Shown: positions 403-32,253 of the stretch, piece by piece
How the letters are laid out: each line of letters starts with the position of its first letter
Position numbering within the stretch: the stretch's first letter is position 1
Position numbers and translations under genes: made by a program
The notes under the pieces: model-generated
Told to the model about the DNA's origin: nothing
What the model saw: only the letters and a program-made list of their open reading frames with translations
Databases searched by the model: none
Source of the DNA: a virus
Strand: one strand, 5' to 3'
DNA length: 37,554 nt
Virus record (IMG/VR): IMGVR_UViG_3300027903_000005

Positions 403-858
403 ATGGGCGATAAAAAAGAATTTAAAAAGAAACAGTTTCATATAGATTCAATGAAATTCAAAGATATAGAATGGGATGAAGAGCGTTGGGGAATTAATTT
501 GAAACTATACGAAAAAGATGGAAAGAATAGTATTGCTGTTCCTATGTTGGACACATTAAATTATGCCATGTCAAAACTGGAAGATCTTTATAACTACCTA
601 GGTAAATGTATTGATAGCTCAACTGGCAAATCAAATGGGTACCAACTAAAGAATCTTAGATATTTAACAGAATCAATTCAAGAAACCATCGACGAAGCGT
701 ATCAAATTCCAAGCAAACAAGACCTTATAGATACTATAAAGGAATGCCTTGATACTCTTGATTCGGTAGATGAAGAAAAAGAAAGATGGCAGAAACGAGC
801 TTTTGACTTAGAGCGTAAATATGAACCAGATGATGATTTAGAAGACGAAGATGACTAA
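403..858 (+). CDS. hypothetical acidic protein (about 151 aa)
   Basis: ATG at 403 follows AAGGAA. The track starts at TTG 400. The C-terminus is acidic (DDDLEDEDD). The stop overlaps the next ATG (ATGACTAA). Confidence 0.7.
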   Translation: MGDKKEFKKKQFHIDSMKFKDIEWDEERWGINLKLYEKDGKNSIAVPMLDTLNYAMSKLEDLYNYLGKCIDSSTGKSNGYQLKNLRYLTESIQETIDEAYQIPSKQDLIDTIKECLDTLDSVDEEKERWQKRAFDLERKYEPDDDLEDEDD

Positions 859-1190
859 AAGGGATATAAGTAAGTCAAAAATAAGAATTCAAGAGAACCA
901 TGAGACTGAAGATGTAGTTGAAGTCCTTTTAGGGATAAGAAAAATCCTTACTGTTAGAGACAAGAAAGAACCGACGGATATATATTCTCGATTTTTGTGG
1001 CCTTACAGATAGAGAAATAAAAATTTATTATGCGCGCCTATTTGACAATAGGACATTTAAATCAATAGGAGAAGAAATTGGAGTTGCTCCTAATCATGTA
1101 AGTGAAATATTAAGTAAATCTCTTAGGAAAATACGGGGTTTCTGGGCAAGAAATTATGAGTGGGATCAAAAAGAGATAAAGAATCTATGA
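851..1190 (+). CDS. sigma-70 region-4 / LuxR-type HTH protein, split over two reading frames (frameshifted or non-ATG start)
   Basis: Frame A runs from ATG 851 to TAG 1010-1012. Frame B is open from 939 to TGA 1188-1190 and encodes LTDREIKIYYARLFDNRTFKSIGEEIGVAPNHVSEILSKSLRKIR, but has no ATG/GTG/TTG before the HTH. A T5 run at 992-996 lies in the overlap. Confidence 0.5.
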
Positions 1191-4746: not shown

Positions 4747-6880
4747 TAGAATTACAGACCTAAAGAAAACTGTTGAAGAAGCACAAGAATACTTCTCTCA
4801 TAACGTTGAACGATTTAATGAGTTCATGCGCTTTGTATTTAAATCTTCCATGGAACAGCAAGAAGTTGCCGCCTTAGTTACAACTGGCAAACCAACAATC
4901 GAATTCAACATACTAGAAGCCTATATTTCCAGGTTACGAGGCGAGTTTGCCACCCAACAGCCGGCTCTTAATGTACGAGCTGCAGATGGCGTTCCTCTTT
5001 CATCTTTAACACCAGAATTCATTCATACACTAAAAGTAATAGAAGGATATTTATCTGCAATATTATCTGAATCTGCAGATGACATGCTTGCATATAATGT
5101 ATACACTGATTTGTTGGCTGGTGGGTTTTCTGTTGTAAAGGTTATGACAGAATACATTAATGAAATGTCATTTGAGCAGAATATCTGTTTTACACGAGTG
5201 TTTGATCCAACACTATGCTTTTTTGATCCTTTAGCTAGAGATTCACATAAAGGTGATGGACGATATTGCGGCGAGTTATCTCCAATGACGCGCAAAGCTT
5301 TCGAGGAGACATATGGCAAGGAAGCCACTGAAAAGATGACCTTTACCAGAGAGCTATCTGGATTTAGTTGGTCATTTAAGAACGAATCAGAAGATATAGT
5401 TTTAGTTTGTGATTTCTATGAAAAGAAATGCAAAAGAGAAAAAATTGTTAAGCTTTCAAATGGTCGTGTCATTCCTGAAAAGACTTATAAAAAATTCATT
5501 GAAGTATGGAATGATCAAGGACATATAGAGCAGCCACCAGAAATAGTTGGCGAACCAAGAATGACAACGATAGAAACTATATGTCGCTATCGATTCTGTG
5601 AATCCATGGTGCTAGAATATGTGGAGACAGATTTTAAACACTTACCATTAGTGTTTGTTGATGGTAATTCAGTCAGCATAACTGAAAGTGGCTCTACCTG
5701 TCAGATGACTAGACCGTACGTTTATCACGCAAAAGGGATTCAGCGGTTAAAAAACTATGCCGGCCAATCGCTCGCGAATGAATTGGAAAACACTATTCAA
5801 CACAAATTCATTGTTGCCATCGAGTCGATCCCAGAGGATTATCAAACTGCATACCAAAATGTGCAGAAAGCGGATACTCTTATTTATAATCATTTCCTTG
5901 ACAGTCGTAGTCCAGATGTACAACTCCCTCCCCCTCGCGAGGTTAATCGTACTCCAATTCCCCCCGAAATTAGTCAGACGTTTAGAATGTCAGATGAAAT
6001 GACACAGGCGATATTGGGTTCCTATGATGGAGCAGCAGGGATTAATAGAGATAACATGTCTGGAATAGCTTTTGATAAATCAGCACTACAAAGTAATACA
6101 GCCTCTAAACCATATATAGTTGGGTTCGTAAAAGCACTTAATCGAATTGCTCAAATAATAGTGGATTTGATACCTAAATATTATAGAACACCTAGAACTT
6201 TGCCAGTTATGTTGCCAGATGGGAAACGTTCACATGTAGAGATAAACAAAAAAGGCTCTATCTATATGAACTATGACCCTAATACCTTAGAGGTTAAGGT
6301 AGAAGCCGGCGTTAACTTTAATAGACAAAAAGAAATAGCACTAAATACAATAATTAGCTTAATGCAGGCTTCACCTCTATTTGGTCAGTTTATGAACGAA
6401 CATGGACTTCAAATTCTTCTAGATAATGTTGAGATTCGAGGAATTGAGGGACTAAAAGAGAAAGCTGTCGAGTTTGAGCAGGAACTTGCACAACAACGCA
6501 AACATCAGCAAGAACAAGAAGCTCAACAAGGTCAGGCTCAAGCACAACAAATGCAGCAGCAAGCTCAAATTGAACAACAAAGAGTACAAATTGAAATGGC
6601 TCAAGCGCAGAGATCCTTGGAGAATCCAAGTATTGAGCAACTCGGCTTAATGTCTATTCAAGAGAAGGCAAAGTTAGATGCCGCCAATGTCTCTTTAAAA
6701 GAAAGAGATCTTGAAACAAAGTTTATGGAAGTTATGGCTAAAATTCAGATGCAAGGTTTGGAGCTAGACCAAAAGGCTGCACAACAGGACGCTGAAACTG
6801 CCAGAGAGGTTATAAGAGACTTAACTGAGATGAGTAATAATTTTGAAAGAATAAGTAAGGAGACACATGATGAAAGGTAA
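4721..6880 (+). CDS. portal protein (719 aa) with a long Q/E-rich helical C-terminal extension
   Basis: Lies immediately after terL. The size is close to the P22-type portal. The C-terminal coiled-coil stretch QQRKHQQEQEAQQGQAQAQQMQQQAQIEQQRVQIEMAQAQ recalls the P22 portal barrel. Confidence 0.85.
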   Translation: MEVAKKYSDRITDLKKTVEEAQEYFSHNVERFNEFMRFVFKSSMEQQEVAALVTTGKPTIEFNILEAYISRLRGEFATQQPALNVRAADGVPLSSLTPEFIHTLKVIEGYLSAILSESADDMLAYNVYTDLLAGGFSVVKVMTEYINEMSFEQNICFTRVFDPTLCFFDPLARDSHKGDGRYCGELSPMTRKAFEETYGKEATEKMTFTRELSGFSWSFKNESEDIVLVCDFYEKKCKREKIVKLSNGRVIPEKTYKKFIEVWNDQGHIEQPPEIVGEPRMTTIETICRYRFCESMVLEYVETDFKHLPLVFVDGNSVSITESGSTCQMTRPYVYHAKGIQRLKNYAGQSLANELENTIQHKFIVAIESIPEDYQTAYQNVQKADTLIYNHFLDSRSPDVQLPPPREVNRTPIPPEISQTFRMSDEMTQAILGSYDGAAGINRDNMSGIAFDKSALQSNTASKPYIVGFVKALNRIAQIIVDLIPKYYRTPRTLPVMLPDGKRSHVEINKKGSIYMNYDPNTLEVKVEAGVNFNRQKEIALNTIISLMQASPLFGQFMNEHGLQILLDNVEIRGIEGLKEKAVEFEQELAQQRKHQQEQEAQQGQAQAQQMQQQAQIEQQRVQIEMAQAQRSLENPSIEQLGLMSIQEKAKLDAANVSLKERDLETKFMEVMAKIQMQGLELDQKAAQQDAETAREVIRDLTEMSNNFERISKETHDER

Positions 6881-7308: not shown

Positions 7309-7551
7309 ATGGAAATTTATACACTAAAAGACGCAAGAGATTCGTTTCAAAAAATAGTAAAAGATTGCCAGCAATCATCAGAACCAACATGGATTTTAGG
7401 TAAGGGTTACAAGGCAGTTATCTTATCAGAAGAGCTATATGAATCTATGCAAGAATCAATAGAAGTATTTTCTACTATGTTTAGAGAGGAACGACAACGT
7501 CAGAAAGAAACAGGGGACGAAGGAGAAATAGTAGATTTGGATAATATGTAA
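7309..7551 (+). CDS. yefM: Phd/YefM-type antitoxin
   Basis: 80 aa. The N-terminus MEIYTLKDARDSFQKIVKDCQQSSEPTWILGKGYKAVILSEELYESMQE has the typical YefM/Phd layout. The C-tail is acidic. It lies 1 nt upstream of the toxin gene and is preceded by AGGAG. Confidence 0.75.
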   Translation: MEIYTLKDARDSFQKIVKDCQQSSEPTWILGKGYKAVILSEELYESMQESIEVFSTMFREERQRQKETGDEGEIVDLDNM

Positions 7552-7552
7552 G

Positions 7553-7810
7553 ATGTATATTATCGTTATCAGTCCATGTGCTAAAAAAGATGTAAAATTA
7601 ATAAAATTATCCAAGTATTATGGGAAGTATAAAGAGCTTCTACTAAAGATATCTCAAGATCCGTATGCCCCAGGAGATAATTTTAAGGTAATGAGCGGTA
7701 AAATACCGGAAACATTCTCAAGAAGAATATCCTTAAAGCATAGGCTAGTCTACGTGGTAGATGAGGATATTATTACTATAGAAATAGTCAGATGTTGGGG
7801 TCATTATTAA
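7553..7810 (+). CDS. yoeB: YoeB/Txe-type mRNA interferase toxin
   Basis: FSRRISLKHRLVYVVDEDIITIEIVRCWGHY matches the YoeB C-terminal signature (SRRI..EHRLVY...I..CR.HY), including the terminal His-Tyr. Confidence 0.85.
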   Translation: MYIIVISPCAKKDVKLIKLSKYYGKYKELLLKISQDPYAPGDNFKVMSGKIPETFSRRISLKHRLVYVVDEDIITIEIVRCWGHY

Positions 7811-7835: not shown

Positions 7836-7906
7836 GGATATGTAGCTCAGAGAGTAAGAGCAGCAGACACATCTGCAGGTCCTGGGTTCGACTCCCAGCA
7901 TATCCA
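7836..7906 (+). tRNA. tRNA-like gene with a non-canonical anticodon arm; isotype not assignable and possibly a pseudo-tRNA or decoy
   Basis: The acceptor stem GGATATG/CATATCC has 7 bp. The D arm is GCTC-AGAGAGTAA-GAGC, with no GG in the loop. The variable loop is AGGTC. The T arm is CTGGG-TTCGACT-CCCAG and the discriminator is A. The anticodon arm is only 14 nt (GCAGA-CACA-TCTGC). A T8 run follows. Confidence 0.55.
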
Positions 7907-8977: not shown

Positions 8978-10222
8978 ATGCCTACAAATATCTTGCAACA
9001 GGTTATTACCTATAATGAATCTAACCTTGCGCTTTTACTTAACTCTTTCTGTTTTTTAAGTACATCGAATAAAAAGTTCGTTGGATTTAATGATTCTATT
9101 CCTAAGAACTTGGGTGACACTGTATCATTTGATTTACCACCAAGATTTACCACTACGAACTCACTGGTTGTAACATTCCAGCCTGCTGTTCAGCGTGTTC
9201 AAAACTTGACGGTAGACCAACAAGCCTCAACTGCTTACGAGTTTACTGCACAACAATTTATTTTCAATGTTCGTGACTATATGCCGAAATTCGGTAAATC
9301 AGCTACTGCTGAGCTTGGTACACAAGTTGAATCTAACGTAGCTCAATTGGCTGAGACTAATACATTCCGTTTTTACGGAGATGGTATCAACCCAATCAAC
9401 AGCTACTTGCAATTAGCAAACGCTTTGGCTTTCTTCCGTAACTTTGGTGCAGTTCCAACAGACACTAAAGGCTATCTATCAGATTTAACATTCCCATTGA
9501 TTGTTAACTCCGGTTTAAACCAGTTCACTATGAACAGGGGTAACCGCGAAGCAATGTCATGGGAAATTGGTGATTTTAGTAAGTGCGAATGGTATCAATC
9601 AAACTTGCTTAAAACTCACCTTGCAGGAACAGAAGGAAACGCAGGTTCTACATTGACAGTTGTGTCAACTACATTGGACGCTAATGGAGCCGTTATTGCT
9701 ATTACATTTAGTGGAACAAACGCTGCTAGTGATGCTAATTCAATAAAGAAATATGATAAGTTTCAGTTCAGCGATGGAGTTTCTGGAAAAGCAAATCTTA
9801 GATTCTTAACCTTTATTGGTCATAAGCAATCTCAGTCTCCTGTACAGTTTAGAGCTACAGCTGACGCTGCTTCTACTGGCGGTTCACAAGTAACGGTAAG
9901 TCTTTATCCTCCATTACAAGCAAACTCAGGACAAGACCAAAACTTAAACACTCCAATTGTAGCTGGTATGCAGGTAACTGTTCTTCCTGACCATAGATGT
10001 GGTTTGATTATGTCTGGGAATCCATTGTTCTTAGCTATGCCTAGACTACCGGAAGAGGTTCCATTCCCAACTTCTGTTGCGATGGACCCTGATTCAGGAG
10101 CTAGTATTCGTCAGTATTATGGTTCTCTGTTTGGGCAAAACCAACGTGGAATGGTTCACGATGTTATATGGGGATCTACACTAGTAGACGAATATTCGAT
10201 GATGGTAGCTTTGCCTATATAG
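8978..10222 (+). CDS. major capsid protein (P22-coat-like by position and size)
   Basis: 414 aa, preceded by GGGAGA. It directly follows the scaffold gene. A strong stem-loop lies just downstream. Confidence 0.75.
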   Translation: MPTNILQQVITYNESNLALLLNSFCFLSTSNKKFVGFNDSIPKNLGDTVSFDLPPRFTTTNSLVVTFQPAVQRVQNLTVDQQASTAYEFTAQQFIFNVRDYMPKFGKSATAELGTQVESNVAQLAETNTFRFYGDGINPINSYLQLANALAFFRNFGAVPTDTKGYLSDLTFPLIVNSGLNQFTMNRGNREAMSWEIGDFSKCEWYQSNLLKTHLAGTEGNAGSTLTVVSTTLDANGAVIAITFSGTNAASDANSIKKYDKFQFSDGVSGKANLRFLTFIGHKQSQSPVQFRATADAASTGGSQVTVSLYPPLQANSGQDQNLNTPIVAGMQVTVLPDHRCGLIMSGNPLFLAMPRLPEEVPFPTSVAMDPDSGASIRQYYGSLFGQNQRGMVHDVIWGSTLVDEYSMMVALPI

Positions 10223-26542: not shown

Positions 26543-26998
26543 ATGACTGTTAACACACAATTAGATACGGCAAGAGTTCCATTTCCTATATTTAAAAATG
26601 TAGTTGATATATCTTCTGCAAGTATATTAACAATGTATACGACGCCCGTATTAATTATACCGGCGCAAGGTGCTCACAAGGTGATTTCAATACATGATGT
26701 TTTCTTTGAATATCATTTCAATAGTATTCAATATGCAAACGGAAGTGGTATGCAATTGCAATATGGAAATACTGGATCGGGAGGAGGAACAGAAGTTGTA
26801 GTTAGTGCTAATATCAATGTTAACTCAGCTAGTAGCAATATTGGAACTGTCCCTGCAACTCCTTATACTTTAGTTGGGGTTACATCGGACATGGTAAATC
26901 AAGGTATATACGCAACTACTACTATTAATAATTATACATCTGGAAACGGAACAATTAGAGTTAGTATTTTCTATACTGTTGTAACAACTACTGCTTAA
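26543..26998 (+). CDS. stand-alone Z-domain protein G (151 aa)
   Basis: MTVNTQLDTARVP...TPVLIIPAQGAHKVISIHDVFFEY...LQYGNTGSG...VSIFYTVVTTTA. Confidence 0.7.
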   Translation: MTVNTQLDTARVPFPIFKNVVDISSASILTMYTTPVLIIPAQGAHKVISIHDVFFEYHFNSIQYANGSGMQLQYGNTGSGGGTEVVVSANINVNSASSNIGTVPATPYTLVGVTSDMVNQGIYATTTINNYTSGNGTIRVSIFYTVVTTTA

Positions 26999-27010
26999 AA
27001 AGGGATAAAA

Positions 27011-27466
27011 ATGGCAACGAATACACAATTAAATACAGCCTCTGTACCTATTCCTGTTTTTACAGCTACAATTAGTTTGTCTTCTGCAAATATTCAGGCT
27101 ATGTATGTTACTCCAGTTCTTTTATTAGCAGCTCAGGGAGCTCATACATGTATACTTATTAGGGATGTTTTCAATGAATATATATTTAATAGTTCCGGTT
27201 ATTCAAATGGAGATGCTCCTCAAATACAATATGGAAATGTTGGATCAGATGCTAGCCTGTCCTCATTTGTTTTTTATTTAAACAATATAGTTACTGGATC
27301 TTCAAGTAGTTTTTATTCTATTTCAGGAGAACCAACCGGAAATATTCCTACGACACTTTCTGTTAATGCTGGAATATACATATCAAATCAAAGTGCTTCA
27401 TATACAGGTGGAAACTCAACGTTAAAAGTAACAATAAATTATTCAGTAATAACAACAACTGCTTGA
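27011..27466 (+). CDS. stand-alone Z-domain protein H (151 aa)
   Basis: MATNTQLNTASVP...TPVLLLAAQGAHTCILIRDVFNEY...IQYGNVGSD...VTINYSVITTTA. Confidence 0.7.
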   Translation: MATNTQLNTASVPIPVFTATISLSSANIQAMYVTPVLLLAAQGAHTCILIRDVFNEYIFNSSGYSNGDAPQIQYGNVGSDASLSSFVFYLNNIVTGSSSSFYSISGEPTGNIPTTLSVNAGIYISNQSASYTGGNSTLKVTINYSVITTTA

Positions 27467-27484
27467 TATGGAAGATTAAGGAAC

Positions 27485-27931
27485 ATGACAGTAAATACAC
27501 AAATAAATAGCACTGTTGAATATTTAAAGTCAACGGTTACACTTTCTTCAGCAAACATTAAAGGTATGTATGCTGCTCCTGTTATTTTAATACCAGCTCA
27601 AGGTGCTCATACTATAATAATGATTCATGATGTGCTATTGGAATTAGTTTTTAGCACGCTTGCGTATACAGGTAGCGATGGGAATGGATCTGTTATTATG
27701 CAATATGGAAACACAGTCCATGGAGCTGGCCCATCTGCACTTATTATTAATAGCATTGTTACTGGAGCAGTAAATTCAGTTGGAACGTCAGCAAACGTAA
27801 ACATTTCTGATTCTCCTACTAATTATATTAATGCTGCTATATATGCATCTAATACTACATCAGCTTACGCAACCGGAAGCGGAACTATAAATTGCACAAT
27901 ATTTTATTCAATTATAAATACGATCACATAA
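27485..27931 (+). CDS. stand-alone Z-domain protein I (148 aa)
   Basis: MTVNTQINS...APVILIPAQGAHTIIMIHDVLLEL...MQYGNTVHG...CTIFYSIINTIT. Confidence 0.7.
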   Translation: MTVNTQINSTVEYLKSTVTLSSANIKGMYAAPVILIPAQGAHTIIMIHDVLLELVFSTLAYTGSDGNGSVIMQYGNTVHGAGPSALIINSIVTGAVNSVGTSANVNISDSPTNYINAAIYASNTTSAYATGSGTINCTIFYSIINTIT

Positions 27932-28303: not shown

Positions 28304-28423
28304 AGTTGATTTTGATTTGTAACTTATAACGACCTTCCCTCAAACAACAAGGGATTGCCGGCTTTAGTATTATGCCAGGTCAGTTTATCTATGAACGAGC
28401 GAACTGTCAAGGATTACTTGATA

Positions 28424-28456
28424 GTTCAAATGGTTATAAAATGTAACCATTTGAAC
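28424..28456. terminator. perfect 13-bp stem / 7-nt loop hairpin just downstream of the last leftward gene; candidate bidirectional terminator
   Basis: GTTCAAATGGTTA (28424-28436) pairs fully with TAACCATTTGAAC (28444-28456). It lies 33 nt from the stop of 28489..28746. Confidence 0.45.
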
Positions 28457-28488
28457 TTATAACTAATGGTTACTAGTTGATCCATTCA

Positions 28489-28746
28489 TTACCTATCGAC
28501 CTTATTACAAACAGATTGAAACATTTTCAAATTTTTCATAAGTTTCTTATCTAAAATAAATTCGGAAGACTTATACATTTCTTCTACTTCAGGAAGAATT
28601 TCAGTTATACATTCAATTATATAACCCATAGTACAATCTTGTATTTCTTTTTTGTCTTCATTTATCTTATCAGCTAGTCTTCGTAATATATAAATAAGCG
28701 TTTTTTCATCAAATATTTCTATTATAGAATCTATTTTTATATCCAT
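28489..28746 (-). CDS. hypothetical protein (85 aa), last gene of the leftward operon
   Basis: Starts 3 nt after the upstream stop. Looks helical. No motif recognised. Confidence 0.6.
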   Translation of the reverse strand: MDIKIDSIIEIFDEKTLIYILRRLADKINEDKKEIQDCTMGYIIECITEILPEVEEMYKSSEFILDKKLMKNLKMFQSVCNKVDR

Positions 28747-28749
28747 TTT

Positions 28750-28959
28750 TTAATTATTATCCGATAATAATTTTTTCAAATAATCTCTTCTATTTATCAA
28801 ATATTCTCTAGATTTAGGTATTGAATTCATAACATCTGAGCATTGTTCTTTTGTAAAACATTCCTCTTCAATACCCTCTTTGAGGCTTTTCTCAAACTCA
28901 TACATTCTTTTTAGTATATCCAAAATAAGCTGTAATTCTTCTTTTTGTTTGTTGCTCAT
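28750..28959 (-). CDS. hypothetical protein (69 aa)
   Basis: The ATG overlaps the upstream stop (ATGA). Confidence 0.6.
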   Translation of the reverse strand: MSNKQKEELQLILDILKRMYEFEKSLKEGIEEECFTKEQCSDVMNSIPKSREYLINRRDYLKKLLSDNN

Positions 28960-29243
28960 AATATTTGTAAGTATTTCTTCTTATTCTTATCGTACTCTAG
29001 AATACTTAAAGCTTGCTCTAGTTCGCTTCTAAAGAAATCCGATATTGTATTGATTGTCATAGTTGATAAAAGAGCAGTTATTAAAAAATAACTATAATCT
29101 TGATATAGGTTATGTTCAGAAAAATACCATAAACCAAATATTACAGCTGAAATAAACAAGAACCTAACCCTAGAGTTTAGTTTGCTATAGAATCGTATTT
29201 TATCTATTTTATTAATAATATTTCGCGTTAAAGGTATCATCAT
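28956..29243 (-). CDS. small two-TM membrane protein (95 aa); candidate immunity protein, or alternatively a holin
   Basis: I start it at the MM pair (29243/29240), overlapping the upstream TAA (TAATG). The sequence is MMIPLTRNIINKIDKIRFYSKLNSRVRFLFISAVIFGLWYF...YFLITALLSTMTI... The longer track ORF (to 29417) would overlap the upstream gene out of frame. Confidence 0.6.
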   Translation of the reverse strand: MMIPLTRNIINKIDKIRFYSKLNSRVRFLFISAVIFGLWYFSEHNLYQDYSYFLITALLSTMTINTISDFFRSELEQALSILEYDKNKKKYLQIL

Positions 29244-29548
29244 TATTTTTTGTTCTCTTTCCAAGCGTGATAAGCCTCTGAATACATAAATGCAAATGCA
29301 GTTCCGGTTCCCGCTATGCTTCCTCCGGCTATACACCCATAAATGCCACCCGTTCTTGCTCCATTTATGCATCCAAATACAGAAGCATTTCCAGCCAATA
29401 TTGCAGCTAATTTCCAATCGGTATTGCTATATGGGTCTACTCTAGGGGTTGGAACATAATGATTACTATTGTCTACAAATTCACAAGTATAAATATTTCT
29501 TATTGCTCCGGATATTGATTTTAAATATTTATTTTCTAATATTTTCAT
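29243..29548 (-). CDS. class II microcin/bacteriocin-like precursor: 15-aa double-glycine-type leader plus a Gly-rich hydrophobic mature region
   Basis: The leader MKILENKYLKSISGA has L at -12, L at -7, I at -4, G at -2 and A at -1. For comparison, the microcin L leader ends in SGA (recalled from memory). The mature part contains LAAILAGNASVFGCINGARTGGIYGCIAGGSIAGTGTAFAFM. Confidence 0.55.
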   Translation of the reverse strand: MKILENKYLKSISGAIRNIYTCEFVDNSNHYVPTPRVDPYSNTDWKLAAILAGNASVFGCINGARTGGIYGCIAGGSIAGTGTAFAFMYSEAYHAWKENKK

Positions 29549-29802
29549 CCTGTGAACATCTCCGGATATAAAGACTTCATAACATGTAAATGATATTGAT
29601 ATGCCATCATATCAGATTGCATACTTCTAAAGCTTTCTCCAGCATCTATTCTTTTTTGAAACTCTGGTGGTAGGCTTCCATCATATTGCATGGTATATGC
29701 TACATATGAATATTGGCTACTATTGGACTTTGATTCTTCTGTATATGTCATGCTGGCAGAGCCAGAAACAAATTTGGTTTGCTCTATGTTTAGTAAATTC
29801 AT
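29545..29802 (-). CDS. 85-aa protein with a double-glycine-like 15-aa N-terminal leader (MNLLNIEQTKFVSGS)
   Basis: SD AAGGA. L at -12, V at -4, G at -2. The stop overlaps the next ATG (ATGA). Confidence 0.5.
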   Translation of the reverse strand: MNLLNIEQTKFVSGSASMTYTEESKSNSSQYSYVAYTMQYDGSLPPEFQKRIDAGESFRSMQSDMMAYQYHLHVMKSLYPEMFTG

Positions 29803-29883
29803 GATAATCCTTCTTTGTTATATAAGAAAAAGATTACCATGAAGTTACAACAATAGTAATTATTATTTTAATAATCTAGATAA

Positions 29884-30050: not shown

Positions 30051-30818
30051 TTACTCTCCCATTCCAGCTAATTTGTCGGCTAATTTATCTGATTGAGTTT
30101 GAATATCTACAATATTATCTTGTTCAGAAAGCATTCCCTCGACTACATCTCCCATTCTTTGGTCACCTCTCTCTGCAGCTTCATCTAAAGCAATAGCATT
30201 ATTAAGAGATATAGATGATGGCACTAATTTTAACAAGCGTCTAATGACTGTTTTTTGTGCCATTTGCTCCATATCAGTAACCCATGGTCCAGATCCACCG
30301 CTTCTAGAGCGATTTCTTATCTTATTTATGTCGCCCATATTCATAAAATCAAACTGTTTATATCCGTTTCTCATAGTAACAACGGAATATACCCCAATCA
30401 TTGGTCCGCGCTCTTCTATGCTTGGCTCATGCTCTATTCCTGGAGAAGTTCCTCTTTTCATAGAAAAAGTATCGTTTTTATAAACACATGCTGCTTCGAC
30501 GGAAGTTATTTTATCTGACCGATGACTTAGTTCTATCATACCTTTGTACCCTAACATTAGTGTTGCCTGTGTTCCATAGGGGACTAAATAGACCATCCCT
30601 GAAATCCCAGGCTCTAATCCTAGTTGAGCGCATGACATAATGGTACCACATATAGATTCTACGGTGCATTTATTTAACATTGCGTTCTTTTTAAGTTCAC
30701 TATAAGCAAGCATTATTAATCGATCAGAACACATATGTACTGGAAGAGCTTTATCTAAATAAGGTTGCATCTCCACTAATCTTTTATAAGCTGGAACTAA
30801 GCTTGAATTAATTGTCAT
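30051..30818 (-). CDS. recT: RecT-family single-strand annealing protein
   Basis: CAQLGLEPGISGMVYLVPYG...LMLGYKGMIEL...IGVYSVV...GPWVTDMEQMAQKTVIRRLLKLVP matches RecT family signatures. Confidence 0.9.
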   Translation of the reverse strand: MTINSSLVPAYKRLVEMQPYLDKALPVHMCSDRLIMLAYSELKKNAMLNKCTVESICGTIMSCAQLGLEPGISGMVYLVPYGTQATLMLGYKGMIELSHRSDKITSVEAACVYKNDTFSMKRGTSPGIEHEPSIEERGPMIGVYSVVTMRNGYKQFDFMNMGDINKIRNRSRSGGSGPWVTDMEQMAQKTVIRRLLKLVPSSISLNNAIALDEAAERGDQRMGDVVEGMLSEQDNIVDIQTQSDKLADKLAGMGE

Positions 30819-30821
30819 TTT

Positions 30822-31745
30822 TTAAAGTCCTTCATTAGGTTGTTTTATTACGAATCGTCTTTGAGACGAGCATGATTTTATATATTTCTTATAAATTTGC
30901 TCATTCTCTTTTTTAAATGTAGGTGCATCAAATCTGCTGGTTTCTCTTGTCTGTTTCCATGTAGCAACTATTTTACCAGATGTGGATAGCAATGTGTCAT
31001 TTTGACCCATATATATTTTTATCTTGTCTTCGATCTTTTGTTTTTTTTCTTCAGATTCTTTTATGGTGATTTTCAATTCCTCTAGTTTGTCTATTTCTTC
31101 TTGTATATCACCATTTGCAATGATGGGTTCTTGGACTGAAGCATATCCGTATAAACTTAATACTTCTTGACCAGTTGAAACTTCCGGAGCTGTTTCTGTT
31201 TTTACCGCATGCCAGAATTTCTCGTATTTTTTCAGCATCATTTCTTCAAGTTTTAAATTTCTATCTATAACATAATGTCTAAAATCACTACCACGAATCA
31301 ATACTGCAACATAAGCTTTTTGCGTATTAGTAACCATCATGTAATGAGATACCTGTAATAGATAATGGTCAGGTATTTTATTCTCTCCTTGTTCTCCCCA
31401 TCCTAATTCGCTTGAAGATGTTTTTGCTTCAAATATTGCATCGTCTTCTACTCTCCCATCAATATTCCCCGCCAAATACGGTATAGTTGGATGCACTATT
31501 AGATTATTATCTATAGTTACCTCTATACCTGTTTCTGATTCAAACCATTTTATAACAGAGGGCTCAAGAAAATTACCAGCCTTAACATAAGGATTATCCG
31601 ATATATCTTTTGGAGTTCTTTGTCTAATTTTCTCCTGCCATAACTCTATGATGTTACCCCATTTTGAAACACCACAGATTACGGCAGAATCAGAACCACA
31701 AATATAATTCAAACGCTCCTCTAGTTGTAATGATGTCAAACTCAT
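30822..31745 (-). CDS. YqaJ-type (lambda Exo-like) recombination exonuclease
   Basis: ICGSDSAVICGVSKWGNIIELWQEK, GNFLEPSVIKWFE, NIDGRVEDDAIFEAKT and HYLLQVSHYMMVT are typical YqaJ/PD-(D/E)XK motifs. It lies immediately upstream of recT. Confidence 0.9.
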   Translation of the reverse strand: MSLTSLQLEERLNYICGSDSAVICGVSKWGNIIELWQEKIRQRTPKDISDNPYVKAGNFLEPSVIKWFESETGIEVTIDNNLIVHPTIPYLAGNIDGRVEDDAIFEAKTSSSELGWGEQGENKIPDHYLLQVSHYMMVTNTQKAYVAVLIRGSDFRHYVIDRNLKLEEMMLKKYEKFWHAVKTETAPEVSTGQEVLSLYGYASVQEPIIANGDIQEEIDKLEELKITIKESEEKKQKIEDKIKIYMGQNDTLLSTSGKIVATWKQTRETSRFDAPTFKKENEQIYKKYIKSCSSQRRFVIKQPNEGL

Positions 31746-32224: not shown

Positions 32225-32253
32225 ATTATACAAACTTGTGTTACAAGTGTCAA
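32225..32253 (-). promoter_or_regulatory. consensus sigma-70 promoter driving the leftward (early) operon
   Basis: The minus strand reads TTGACA, then cttgtaacacaagtttg (17 nt), then TATAAT. Confidence 0.65.
32234..32248. promoter_or_regulatory. palindromic operator candidate ACTTGT-GTT-ACAAGT inside the promoter spacer
   Basis: A perfect 6-3-6 inverted repeat, nested in the longer AAACTTG...CAAGTTT symmetry (32232-32257). Confidence 0.5.

Follow-up and report, generated by a model that had tools for sequence, protein, structure and literature searches.

The IMG/VR virus record IMGVR_UViG_3300027903_000005 (referred to as the window, i.e., the whole stretch of DNA analysed here) is a complete, circularly assembled phage genome (37,554 bases, 37.1% GC) that has a terminal direct repeat of 99 bp and was traced to JGI metagenome 3300010159. 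On its minus strand, behind genes for an exonuclease and a RecT annealase, lie five small genes, P1 to P5; P1 and P2, together with a small gene on the plus strand, GG3, encode proteins that start with a 15-residue leader of the double-glycine type. An earlier note on this DNA had described P1 to P5 as a cassette carrying a microcin-like precursor (P2) and a putative immunity protein (P3). Rechecking of coordinates and junctions confirmed the five minus-strand open reading frames (ORFs), their overlaps, both 15-residue N-termini and the Gly/Cys-rich stretch: the P1/P2 and P3/P4 junctions are of the ATGA type, P2/P3 is TAATG, and a 3-nt gap separates P4 and P5. The segment had also been called markedly AT-rich, which holds for P3 to P5 (24-26% GC) and not for P1 and P2 (35-36%, near the genome mean). 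The positions of all genes and elements discussed are given in Table 1.

Leader sequences of P1, P2 and GG3

The strict 15-residue double-glycine leader pattern was detected in 3 of the 272 ORFs in the window, to be compared with 0.095 expected from shuffles. The same pattern was present in 3 of 6,824 ORFs from 79 unrelated RecT phage loci, and 80 bacterial RecT loci gave no convincing case of a 15-residue double-glycine leader. A chance origin of the leaders was rejected by these shuffle and control-locus counts. A Sec or Tat signal was rejected on inspection, the leaders being without a hydrophobic core.

The leader is present in all 22 P2 relatives and in 36 of the 40 P1 relatives, and the claim that both products carry double-glycine-type leaders is upheld by this conservation. 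The other four P1 relatives have a deletion or an uncertain start and were left out of the leader alignment. In the alignment of the 22 P2 and 36 P1 leaders, M at position -15 is mostly followed by R or K at -14, position -12 is L, I or V in all sequences, -8 is often E, and -7 is mostly L (23 of 36 in P1, more variable in P2). Closer to the putative cut site, position -4 is V or I with one exception, an A (V/I in 21 of 22 P2 sequences), -3 is S in 56 of 58 (36 of 36 in the P1 family), -2 is an invariant G, and -1 is A in all 22 P2 sequences and A, G or S in P1; examples from the families are MRTLNLDDLMQVSGA, MRSLSLQEIPSVSGA and MRQLDKIYLEMISGA. Signals recognised by peptidase-containing ABC transporters (PCATs) are leaders of about 15-25 aa with a G-[GAS] end and hydrophobic residues at -4, -7, -12 (and -15); both families have this end and the hydrophobic residues at -12 and -4.

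Signals of class II microcins are 15-18 aa long and end in GG or GA (PMC10233263), a GS end is also admitted (PMC12219008), and the signal of microcin V (MccV), as cited in the latter paper, reads MRTLTLNELDSVSGG. In the microcin screen of PMC12219008, either Motif 1 or Motif 2 was matched by 21 of 22 P2, 22 of 40 P1 and 3 of 5 GG3 sequences. Specifically, P2 and GG3 of the window match Motif 2, 15 of the 22 P2 relatives match Motif 1, and P1 of the window misses the motifs solely because of N at residue 2. Using hhalign, the alignment of the P2 family profile with MccV was confined to the MccV signal, while with MccL it covered the leader and a weak Gly-rich stretch (the microcin core sequences used are to be taken as approximate). 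In the profile searches that had been proposed as a check there was no Pfam or NCBIfam family match, and the P2 leader aligned to the MccV signal with the microcin motifs matched.

The ratio of nonsynonymous to synonymous differences (pN/pS) for P1, P2 and P3 is 0.07-0.26 when compared with relatives having near-saturated synonymous sites (pS 0.5-0.7), and the leader codons are constrained at least as strongly as the genes (pN/pS 0-0.14), so that P1, P2, P3 and the leaders are all under strong purifying selection. We therefore consider that these are real genes with a functional N-terminus. In the AlphaFold2 (AF2) models of P1 and P2 the leader forms a short helix at residues 6-12, which is followed by an unstructured linker.

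Within a single genome, three unrelated cores thus share one leader with no difference in length, and this points to one shared recognition machine. For double-glycine peptides this role falls to the C39 peptidase domain of a PCAT. Based on these comparisons we consider it likely that the leader is a PCAT-type signal. Another conceivable origin is a phage propeptide or capsid-targeting sequence that is cut by a prohead protease, with the proteins being packaged and injected. It would account for unrelated small phage proteins sharing a short N-terminus with a fixed cleavage-like end, and the T4 internal proteins, which carry capsid-targeting sequences, are a formal parallel. However, no prohead protease is recognisable, the head is P22-like (scaffold, P22-type portal), the genes are located in early and not in late operons, the motif is present on no structural protein, and it matches the PCAT signal position by position. 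We regard this origin as highly improbable, and the N-termini are treated below as putative PCAT signals.

The P2 family

The core of P2 consists of a variable polar N-terminal part, a conserved glycine zipper and a short charged tail. It has Cys residues at positions 22, 60 and 72, and Gly residues at 59, 63, 67, 71 and 75 that form an unbroken GxxxG zipper with four repeats. The family alignment gives the block NAAxFGCxGGxxxGGxxGCxxGGxxGxxG and a tail ending in ..AY.xY..K, with C60, G67, G68, G71, C72 and G82 being invariant. The AF2 model predicts a long helix spanning residues 45-100, with a predicted local distance difference test score (pLDDT) of ~85 over residues 41-90; comparison of the P2 family with PDB sequence profiles gave noise only.

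For P2, a word-indexed search of 5.8 billion proteins returned only P2 itself and one protein that is 82% identical, a full HMMER pass over 1.84 billion cluster representatives gave seven short relatives, and a profile search raised the family to 21 clusters of 94-105 aa.

For Cdz-like bacteriocins the published criteria are a length of 60-151 aa, a leader ending in G[G/A/S], one or two glycine zippers uninterrupted by Pro or charge, and a C-terminal tail that is short and either charged or polar (García-Bayona et al., PMC5380434). All four are found in P2, the leader of which ends in ...SGA and the tail of which is YSEAYHAWKENKK; R65 lies inside the zipper run, which is then readable as two shorter zippers, an arrangement that the criteria in PMC5380434 allow. 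Microcin cores range from 60 to 90 aa, or about 5-10 kDa (PMC10233263), and the 15-aa GA leader and 86-aa core of P2 are within the size criteria for class II microcins. The P2 core has no homology to any verified microcin (Pfam, NCBIfam, and hhalign against MccV and MccL with the approximate cores). The claim that the mature region is microcin- or bacteriocin-like is borne out with respect to the published sequence criteria, and we consider P2 a candidate microcin/Cdz-like toxin.

P1 and GG3

The P1 core carries the conserved motif DGSLPPEFQxRIDxGES...YPEMF. In the family alignment S13 and G14 are invariant, and the sequence is hypervariable directly after the putative cut site. The AF2 model (pLDDT 79) has a two-helix core with pLDDT >90 over residues 41-80; comparison with PDB sequence profiles and Foldseek searches against PDB and BFVD gave no match beyond a member of its own family. 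The profile search yielded 40 clusters of P1 relatives, all of 81-94 aa except for one truncated entry of 49 aa, and one of the clusters is annotated as being from 'uncultured Caudovirales phage'. No relative was detected with the P1 profile in a scan of 185,579 bacterial and archaeal species, each represented by a single genome. Judged from these searches, P1 is a new protein family confined to phages.

GG3 is located in the rightward early/replication operon, where its neighbours are replication and regulatory genes; it is preceded by an AGGAG Shine-Dalgarno sequence and its start overlaps the upstream gene (ATGA). Among the related phage loci (numbered with the prefix L), homologues with GG leaders are present in L001, L014 and L015, and there is a divergent one in L012. 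GG3 had no match in PADLOC, the sole library that was scanned for this protein.

P3 and the genes and spacer flanking P1 and P2

The protein with two putative transmembrane segments that had been noticed after P2 recurs in the relatives: P3 is encoded just downstream of P2 (adjacent or nearly so) in all nine assessable phages. Its pN/pS is 0.15-0.17 and its C-terminus is charged; comparison with PDB sequence profiles gave noise only. Microcin immunity genes are small and located beside the toxin gene (PMC12219008), and the small size of P3 and its adjacency to P2 fit this description, making P3 a candidate immunity protein.

P4 and P5 are present only in the closest relative, L001, and unrelated ORFs are found in their place in L014, L007, L010, L012 and L015-L017. 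By sequence comparison P4 and P5 are variable cargo outside the conserved core.

The small lipoprotein gene between recT and P1 is kept upstream of P1 in 8 of 10 related phages, where the homologues have lipoboxes and share the motif KE.s.R...G..Y..K. No significant match was obtained in Pfam, PHROGs or NCBIfam, a spanin match in PHROGs being non-significant (E = 0.38). In size it recalls colicin release or phage exclusion lipoproteins, to neither of which it has a sequence match.

The spacer between the lipoprotein gene and P1 shows 92.6-97.5% nucleotide identity among three phages, compared with 71-85% in the flanking coding DNA. Its predicted RNA fold has a free energy of -22.9 kcal/mol (z = -4.4), in which the Shine-Dalgarno sequence and AUG of P1 pair with a complementary stretch further upstream. 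Four phages retain the hairpin, but nearly all of its pairs are invariant and hence provide no covariation support. The predicted fold suggests that the hairpin may gate translation of P1. In L015 an extra GC-rich hairpin is inserted in the loop.

Table 1. Genes and elements of the window discussed in the text (aa, amino acid residues; nt, nucleotides)
Feature	Length	Position	Strand	Description
P1	85 aa	29545..29802	-	15-aa double-glycine-type leader MNLLNIEQTKFVSGS and 70-aa hydrophilic core
P2	101 aa	29243..29548	-	15-aa leader MKILENKYLKSISGA ending in GA and 86-aa core
GG3	54 aa	34858..35022	+	Leader MKILSNKLTSSISGG, then TNEEV...; 39-aa acidic core
P3	95 aa	28956..29243	-	Hydrophobic segments at ~28-43 and 52-70; conserved I64 and D69 in the second
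P4	69 aa	28750..28959	-	Small acidic helical protein, operon end
P5	85 aa	28489..28746	-	Small acidic helical protein, operon end
Small lipoprotein	54 aa	29884..30048	-	LFGC lipobox; mature part of 30 aa; start codon 2 nt beyond the stop of recT
Spacer before P1	81 nt	29803..29883	-	Predicted hairpin over the P1 Shine-Dalgarno sequence and AUG
RecT annealase		30818..30051	-	Pfam RecT, 1.5e-46; PHROGs
YqaJ-type exonuclease		31745..30822	-	Pfam YqaJ, 1.6e-24; PHROGs
Sigma-70 consensus promoter		32225..32253	-	TTGACA-17-TATAAT, 12/12 match in promoter scan

Conservation and gene order in related phages

The 13 distinct genomic contexts of P1 and P2 relatives that were inspected are all phage contigs of 15.7-38.7 kb (most of at least 33 kb), and no member of either family is on a contig larger than 39.2 kb. 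The common gene order is exo, RecT, (lipoprotein), P1, [occasional insert], P2, [occasional insert], P3 and variable genes. Hidden Markov models of P1 and P2 gave a match in every locus of the clade and in none of the 79 other RecT phage loci. The synteny and the replacement of P4 and P5 indicate that the conserved unit is lipoprotein-P1-P2-P3, and that it is a fixed trait of this phage clade and not a sporadic insertion; the five-gene cassette as originally described is therefore to be redrawn.

In some relatives unrelated genes are inserted between P1 and P2, i.e., at 653-1003 (+) in L184, encoding a Sigma70_r4 domain, at 9679-10020 in L007 and at 10252-10623 in L015. The junction therefore tolerates insertions although P1 and P2 always co-occur. 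Just upstream of P1 in L012, an ORF at 9595-9759 (+) ends in ...LSKSRLETISGG, followed by AGYERDMAGIL; this textbook leader-like stretch has no start codon at -15, and the ORF could either represent what is left of a leader or encode a short peptide from an atypical start.

In a more distant phage, L023 (IMGVR_UViG_3300021177_000017, 34.2 kb), a different double-glycine peptide, MKPLSIDEIRQIQGG followed by LHIHIGAFIAAIVIGAVTGGPVGVG..., is encoded at 5317-5520 (+) after a similar exo-RecT pair and two small ORFs. Its core is Gly-rich and class II bacteriocin-like, and double-glycine cargo may repeatedly have settled at the position downstream of RecT.

Transcription of the cassette and candidate host

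The leftward operon comprises, in order, three tiny ORFs, exo, recT, the lipoprotein gene and P1 to P5. The promoter at 32253..32225 presumably heads this early operon, and the cassette is probably transcribed with exo-recT from it, because the gap between recT and the lipoprotein gene is 2 nt and there is no strong internal promoter. The promoter scan revealed no promoter for P1 itself with at least 9/12 matches in the lipoprotein-P1 spacer.

With respect to the host, the large terminase subunit (TerL) is ~30% identical to those of various proteobacterial and cyanobacterial phages, and RecT is at most 48% identical to its matches, which are spread across both Bacillales and Proteobacteria. 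No match was obtained by Megablast of the region; searches against plasmids gave none for the YoeB-type toxin gene of the window (see below) and only weak matches for its tRNA gene. Taken together, these comparisons gave no consistent host signal. The Shine-Dalgarno sites, the sigma-70 promoter, the lipoboxes, the P22-like head and the MR-type leaders are compatible with a Gram-negative, probably proteobacterial host.

Proposed mode of action and alternatives

We propose that P1, P2 and GG3 are exported in a leader-dependent manner by a PCAT of the host, with P2 as the toxin, P3 as its immunity protein and P1 as an obligatory partner, a reading of the sequences to which we would give slightly better than even chances. 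Specifically, the three proteins would be substrates of a host PCAT, i.e., of a type I secretion system, whose C39 peptidase domain would recognise the shared amphipathic 15-residue leader and cut after G-A, G-S or G-G, whereupon the cores would be exported. The P2 core would be a membrane-inserting glycine-zipper toxin of the class II microcin/Cdz type, with its invariant Cys pair possibly being disulfide-bonded once outside the cytoplasm, and P3 would be the cognate immunity protein in the inner membrane. P1, which is always found with P2 and is translationally coupled to it, would be a co-exported partner. Transcription would occur together with exo-recT from the early leftward promoter, and translation may be gated by the conserved hairpin that covers the ribosome-binding site of P1. 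PCATs of microcin systems are promiscuous towards heterologous cargo that bears a leader (PMC10233263), which makes the use of a host exporter plausible.

Several observations weigh against this proposal. No window ORF scanned had a match to ABC_tran or Peptidase_C39, and a PCAT/MFP (membrane fusion protein) exporter is likewise absent from the gene tables of the 13 related phage loci, in line with the earlier statement that the genome encodes no exporter. The similarity of P2 to known microcins is confined to the leader, and neither P1-P5 nor the lipoprotein had a significant match in Pfam, PHROGs, NCBIfam or PADLOC. P1 and GG3 are hydrophilic/acidic, unlike bacteriocins, and the hydropathy of P3 is moderate, below the strict Kyte-Doolittle cut-off of 1.6. 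Neither an integrase nor a CI-like repressor was recognisable in the window, and the same applies to an endolysin, holin, spanin or muralytic domain (Pfam, PHROGs in both cases). With no integrase or repressor and with contigs never exceeding 39.2 kb, the benefit of a bacteriocin to the phage is hard to place, and an early operon shared with recombination genes and lacking a strong promoter of its own is unusual for a lysogenic-conversion toxin.

The cassette also does not match a lysogenic-conversion moron (sporadic occurrence, own promoter and terminator, an integrating or stably maintained prophage). An integrase N-terminal domain is present in the relative L007. The idea in the earlier note of a temperate or episomal phage arming its host is, as far as a lysogen is concerned, not supported, given the size limit of the contigs, the lack of recognisable lysogeny genes and the finding of no family member in the 185,579 species genomes.

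A second possibility is that the leaders do direct export by a host PCAT and that the cargo serves the infection itself, P2 and P3 through superinfection exclusion or envelope remodelling and P1 and GG3 as diffusible signals. Three unrelated cargo families share the leader, and two of these families, P1 and GG3, are hydrophilic and do not resemble toxins; the phage clade carries the set as a fixed feature, presumably expressed from early operons; no lysogeny genes are recognisable in the window, with no sign of integration among family members or reference genomes; and GG3 is located among replication and regulatory genes. Moreover, the double-glycine peptides ComC and BlpC are pheromones that are exported by PCATs. 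Nevertheless, P2 has the bacteriocin-like features described above, it is strictly paired with a small putative membrane protein, as in classic toxin-immunity arrangements, and no receptor or response-regulator gene is recognisable. We consider an infection-related role of the exported proteins rather unlikely.

The failure to recognise an endolysin, holin or spanin, although every likely ORF was scanned, raises the question of whether P2 and P3, with or without the lipoprotein, constitute an internal lysis or membrane-depolarising set (holin/antiholin-like and spanin-like), or a Kil-like host shut-off function, the N-terminus remaining uncleaved. P3 is holin-like in shape (a small protein whose C-terminus is charged and which has two hydrophobic segments), pinholins are known to contain glycine zippers, the gene for a small lipoprotein lies just upstream, and a hairpin that sequesters the ribosome-binding site suggests a product that needs restraint. 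However, such a function leaves unexplained why the soluble P1 and the acidic GG3, encoded in different operons, carry the same leader. An early operon beside recombination genes would also be atypical for lysis genes, the spanin match of the lipoprotein is non-significant as given above, and no muralytic enzyme is associated with the set. An internal lysis or shut-off role is, in our view, distinctly unlikely, and export of P2 as a toxin with P3 as its immunity protein is the reading that we retain.

In its widest form the export proposal would be that a clade of small P22-portal-type phages hijacks the host PCAT early in infection in order to secrete three leader-tagged proteins, i.e., a toxin (with immunity), P1 and a signal-like GG3; taken as a whole, this sequence-based scenario is tentative, and we hold it to be doubtful.

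Comparison with known systems

Class II microcins of Enterobacterales such as MccV, MccL and MccH47 resemble the phage cassette in having a 15-residue GG/GA signal with hydrophobic periodicity (to which the alignment with the MccV signal can be added), a Gly-rich/hydrophobic core of 60-90 aa with Cys residues, and an adjacent gene for a small membrane protein (a putative one in the phage). They have an immunity protein and export through PCAT/MFP/TolC, whereas the phage cassette is without a PCAT or MFP gene. The phage cassette differs further in that the similarity stops at the leader, in its position in an early operon behind RecT, and in being accompanied by two further leader-bearing proteins that are not bacteriocin-like.

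The Cdz system of Caulobacter crescentus (the bacteriocins CdzC/CdzD, which form surface aggregates and kill on contact, the immunity protein CdzI and the type I secretion genes CdzAB; PMC5380434) is similar with respect to the four criteria found in P2, the two adjacent genes with leaders and a small transmembrane protein (putative in the phage) nearby. In contrast to CdzD, P1 of the phage is hydrophilic and has no glycine zipper, and the phage has no secretion genes of the CdzAB type; the likeness rests on the published criteria.

In the Bacillus prophage SPβ, presublancin has a double-glycine leader and is encoded along with its PCAT, SunT, and its immunity protein, SunI (PMC4336743). This sublancin 168 locus (sunI, sunA, sunT, bdbA, sunS, bdbB) constitutes, as proposed for P2, a phage-borne double-glycine bacteriocin locus. 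SPβ, however, is a 134-kb temperate phage of a Gram-positive host with its own SunT and modification enzymes, its own sigma-A promoter and expression in the lysogen, while the window phage is ~37 kb, has a P22-type portal and no exporter or modification enzyme, and its cassette is clade-conserved, has cargo from several families and belongs to an early operon.

The streptococcal orphan Com/Blp/Rtg peptides (PMC7018657) are also encoded away from their exporting PCAT and have diverse roles in competition and signalling; they are chromosomal and Gram-positive with known transporters, whereas the phage proteins are virus-borne and their transporter is hypothetical.

According to a survey of prophage biosynthetic clusters, these are overwhelmingly bacteriocins (bioRxiv 10.1101/2020.10.01.322628), and a 2025 survey that finds microcins to be ubiquitous does not mention phages, nor did the other papers searched mention them as carriers of class II microcin-like toxins. 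In the literature searched we found no exporterless, multi-cargo set of microcin-type leader proteins that is clade-wide in small P22-portal-type phages and located in early operons. The suggestion that the system has no precedent does not hold in the light of sublancin, which is already phage-borne with its own SunT. A phage-borne double-glycine bacteriocin is thus already known; what is new here is the exporterless, multi-cargo and clade-conserved nature of the set and its siting in the early operon.

Should the leaders function in the predicted way, the range of class II microcin-like toxins would extend to viruses. If the proposal is true, a phage would exploit, and depend on, a type I secretion pump of the host for several cargoes, which would constitute a new route for viruses to act on cells other than the infected one. 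The analysis adds three new leader-tagged families (P1, P2 and GG3) and a candidate immunity family (P3), and it would help to predict which host this uncultured phage clade infects, because on this reading the host must carry a PCAT. The clade-wide, exporterless arrangement with three cargoes would be surprising to a specialist on microcins or phages.

Other features of the phage genome

Recognised head genes in the window encode the scaffold, the P22-type portal, a head-closure protein resembling Hc3/P22-gp10 and an adaptor of the SU10 type, and those for nucleases and packaging encode an HNH endonuclease, a VRR-NUC nuclease and an Sf6-type small terminase that spans the window ends. The ORFs of at least 600 aa are the P22-type portal and two proteins without a Pfam match, and approximately half of the window genes have no match in Pfam or PHROGs. 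The major capsid protein (8978-10222) had no match among 50,697 cultured phage records.

At 28423-28457, where the leftward and rightward operons converge, the gap between them holds a perfect inverted repeat of 14 bp (AGTTCAAATGGTTA / TAACCATTTGAACT, 7-nt loop); as a T-run is missing, the repeat is not a canonical terminator. Between small genes on the portal side and the scaffold gene, at 7309-7810 (+), there is a pair of genes for a YefM-type antitoxin and a YoeB-type toxin, and the occurrence of this pair without a recognisable integrase hints at plasmid-like (episomal) carriage. At 7836-7906 (+) a tRNA gene was predicted (58 bits in Rfam), to which ARAGORN assigned no anticodon and which has an abnormal-looking anticodon stem-loop with a short loop. 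Finally, three tandem paralogues of ~150 aa (MTVNTQL.../MATNTQL.../MTVNTQI...) at 26543-27931 (+) end the tail-fibre region; their N-termini are related to those of the upstream 301-aa and 394-aa proteins, and the tandem paralogues look like a diversified receptor-binding set.

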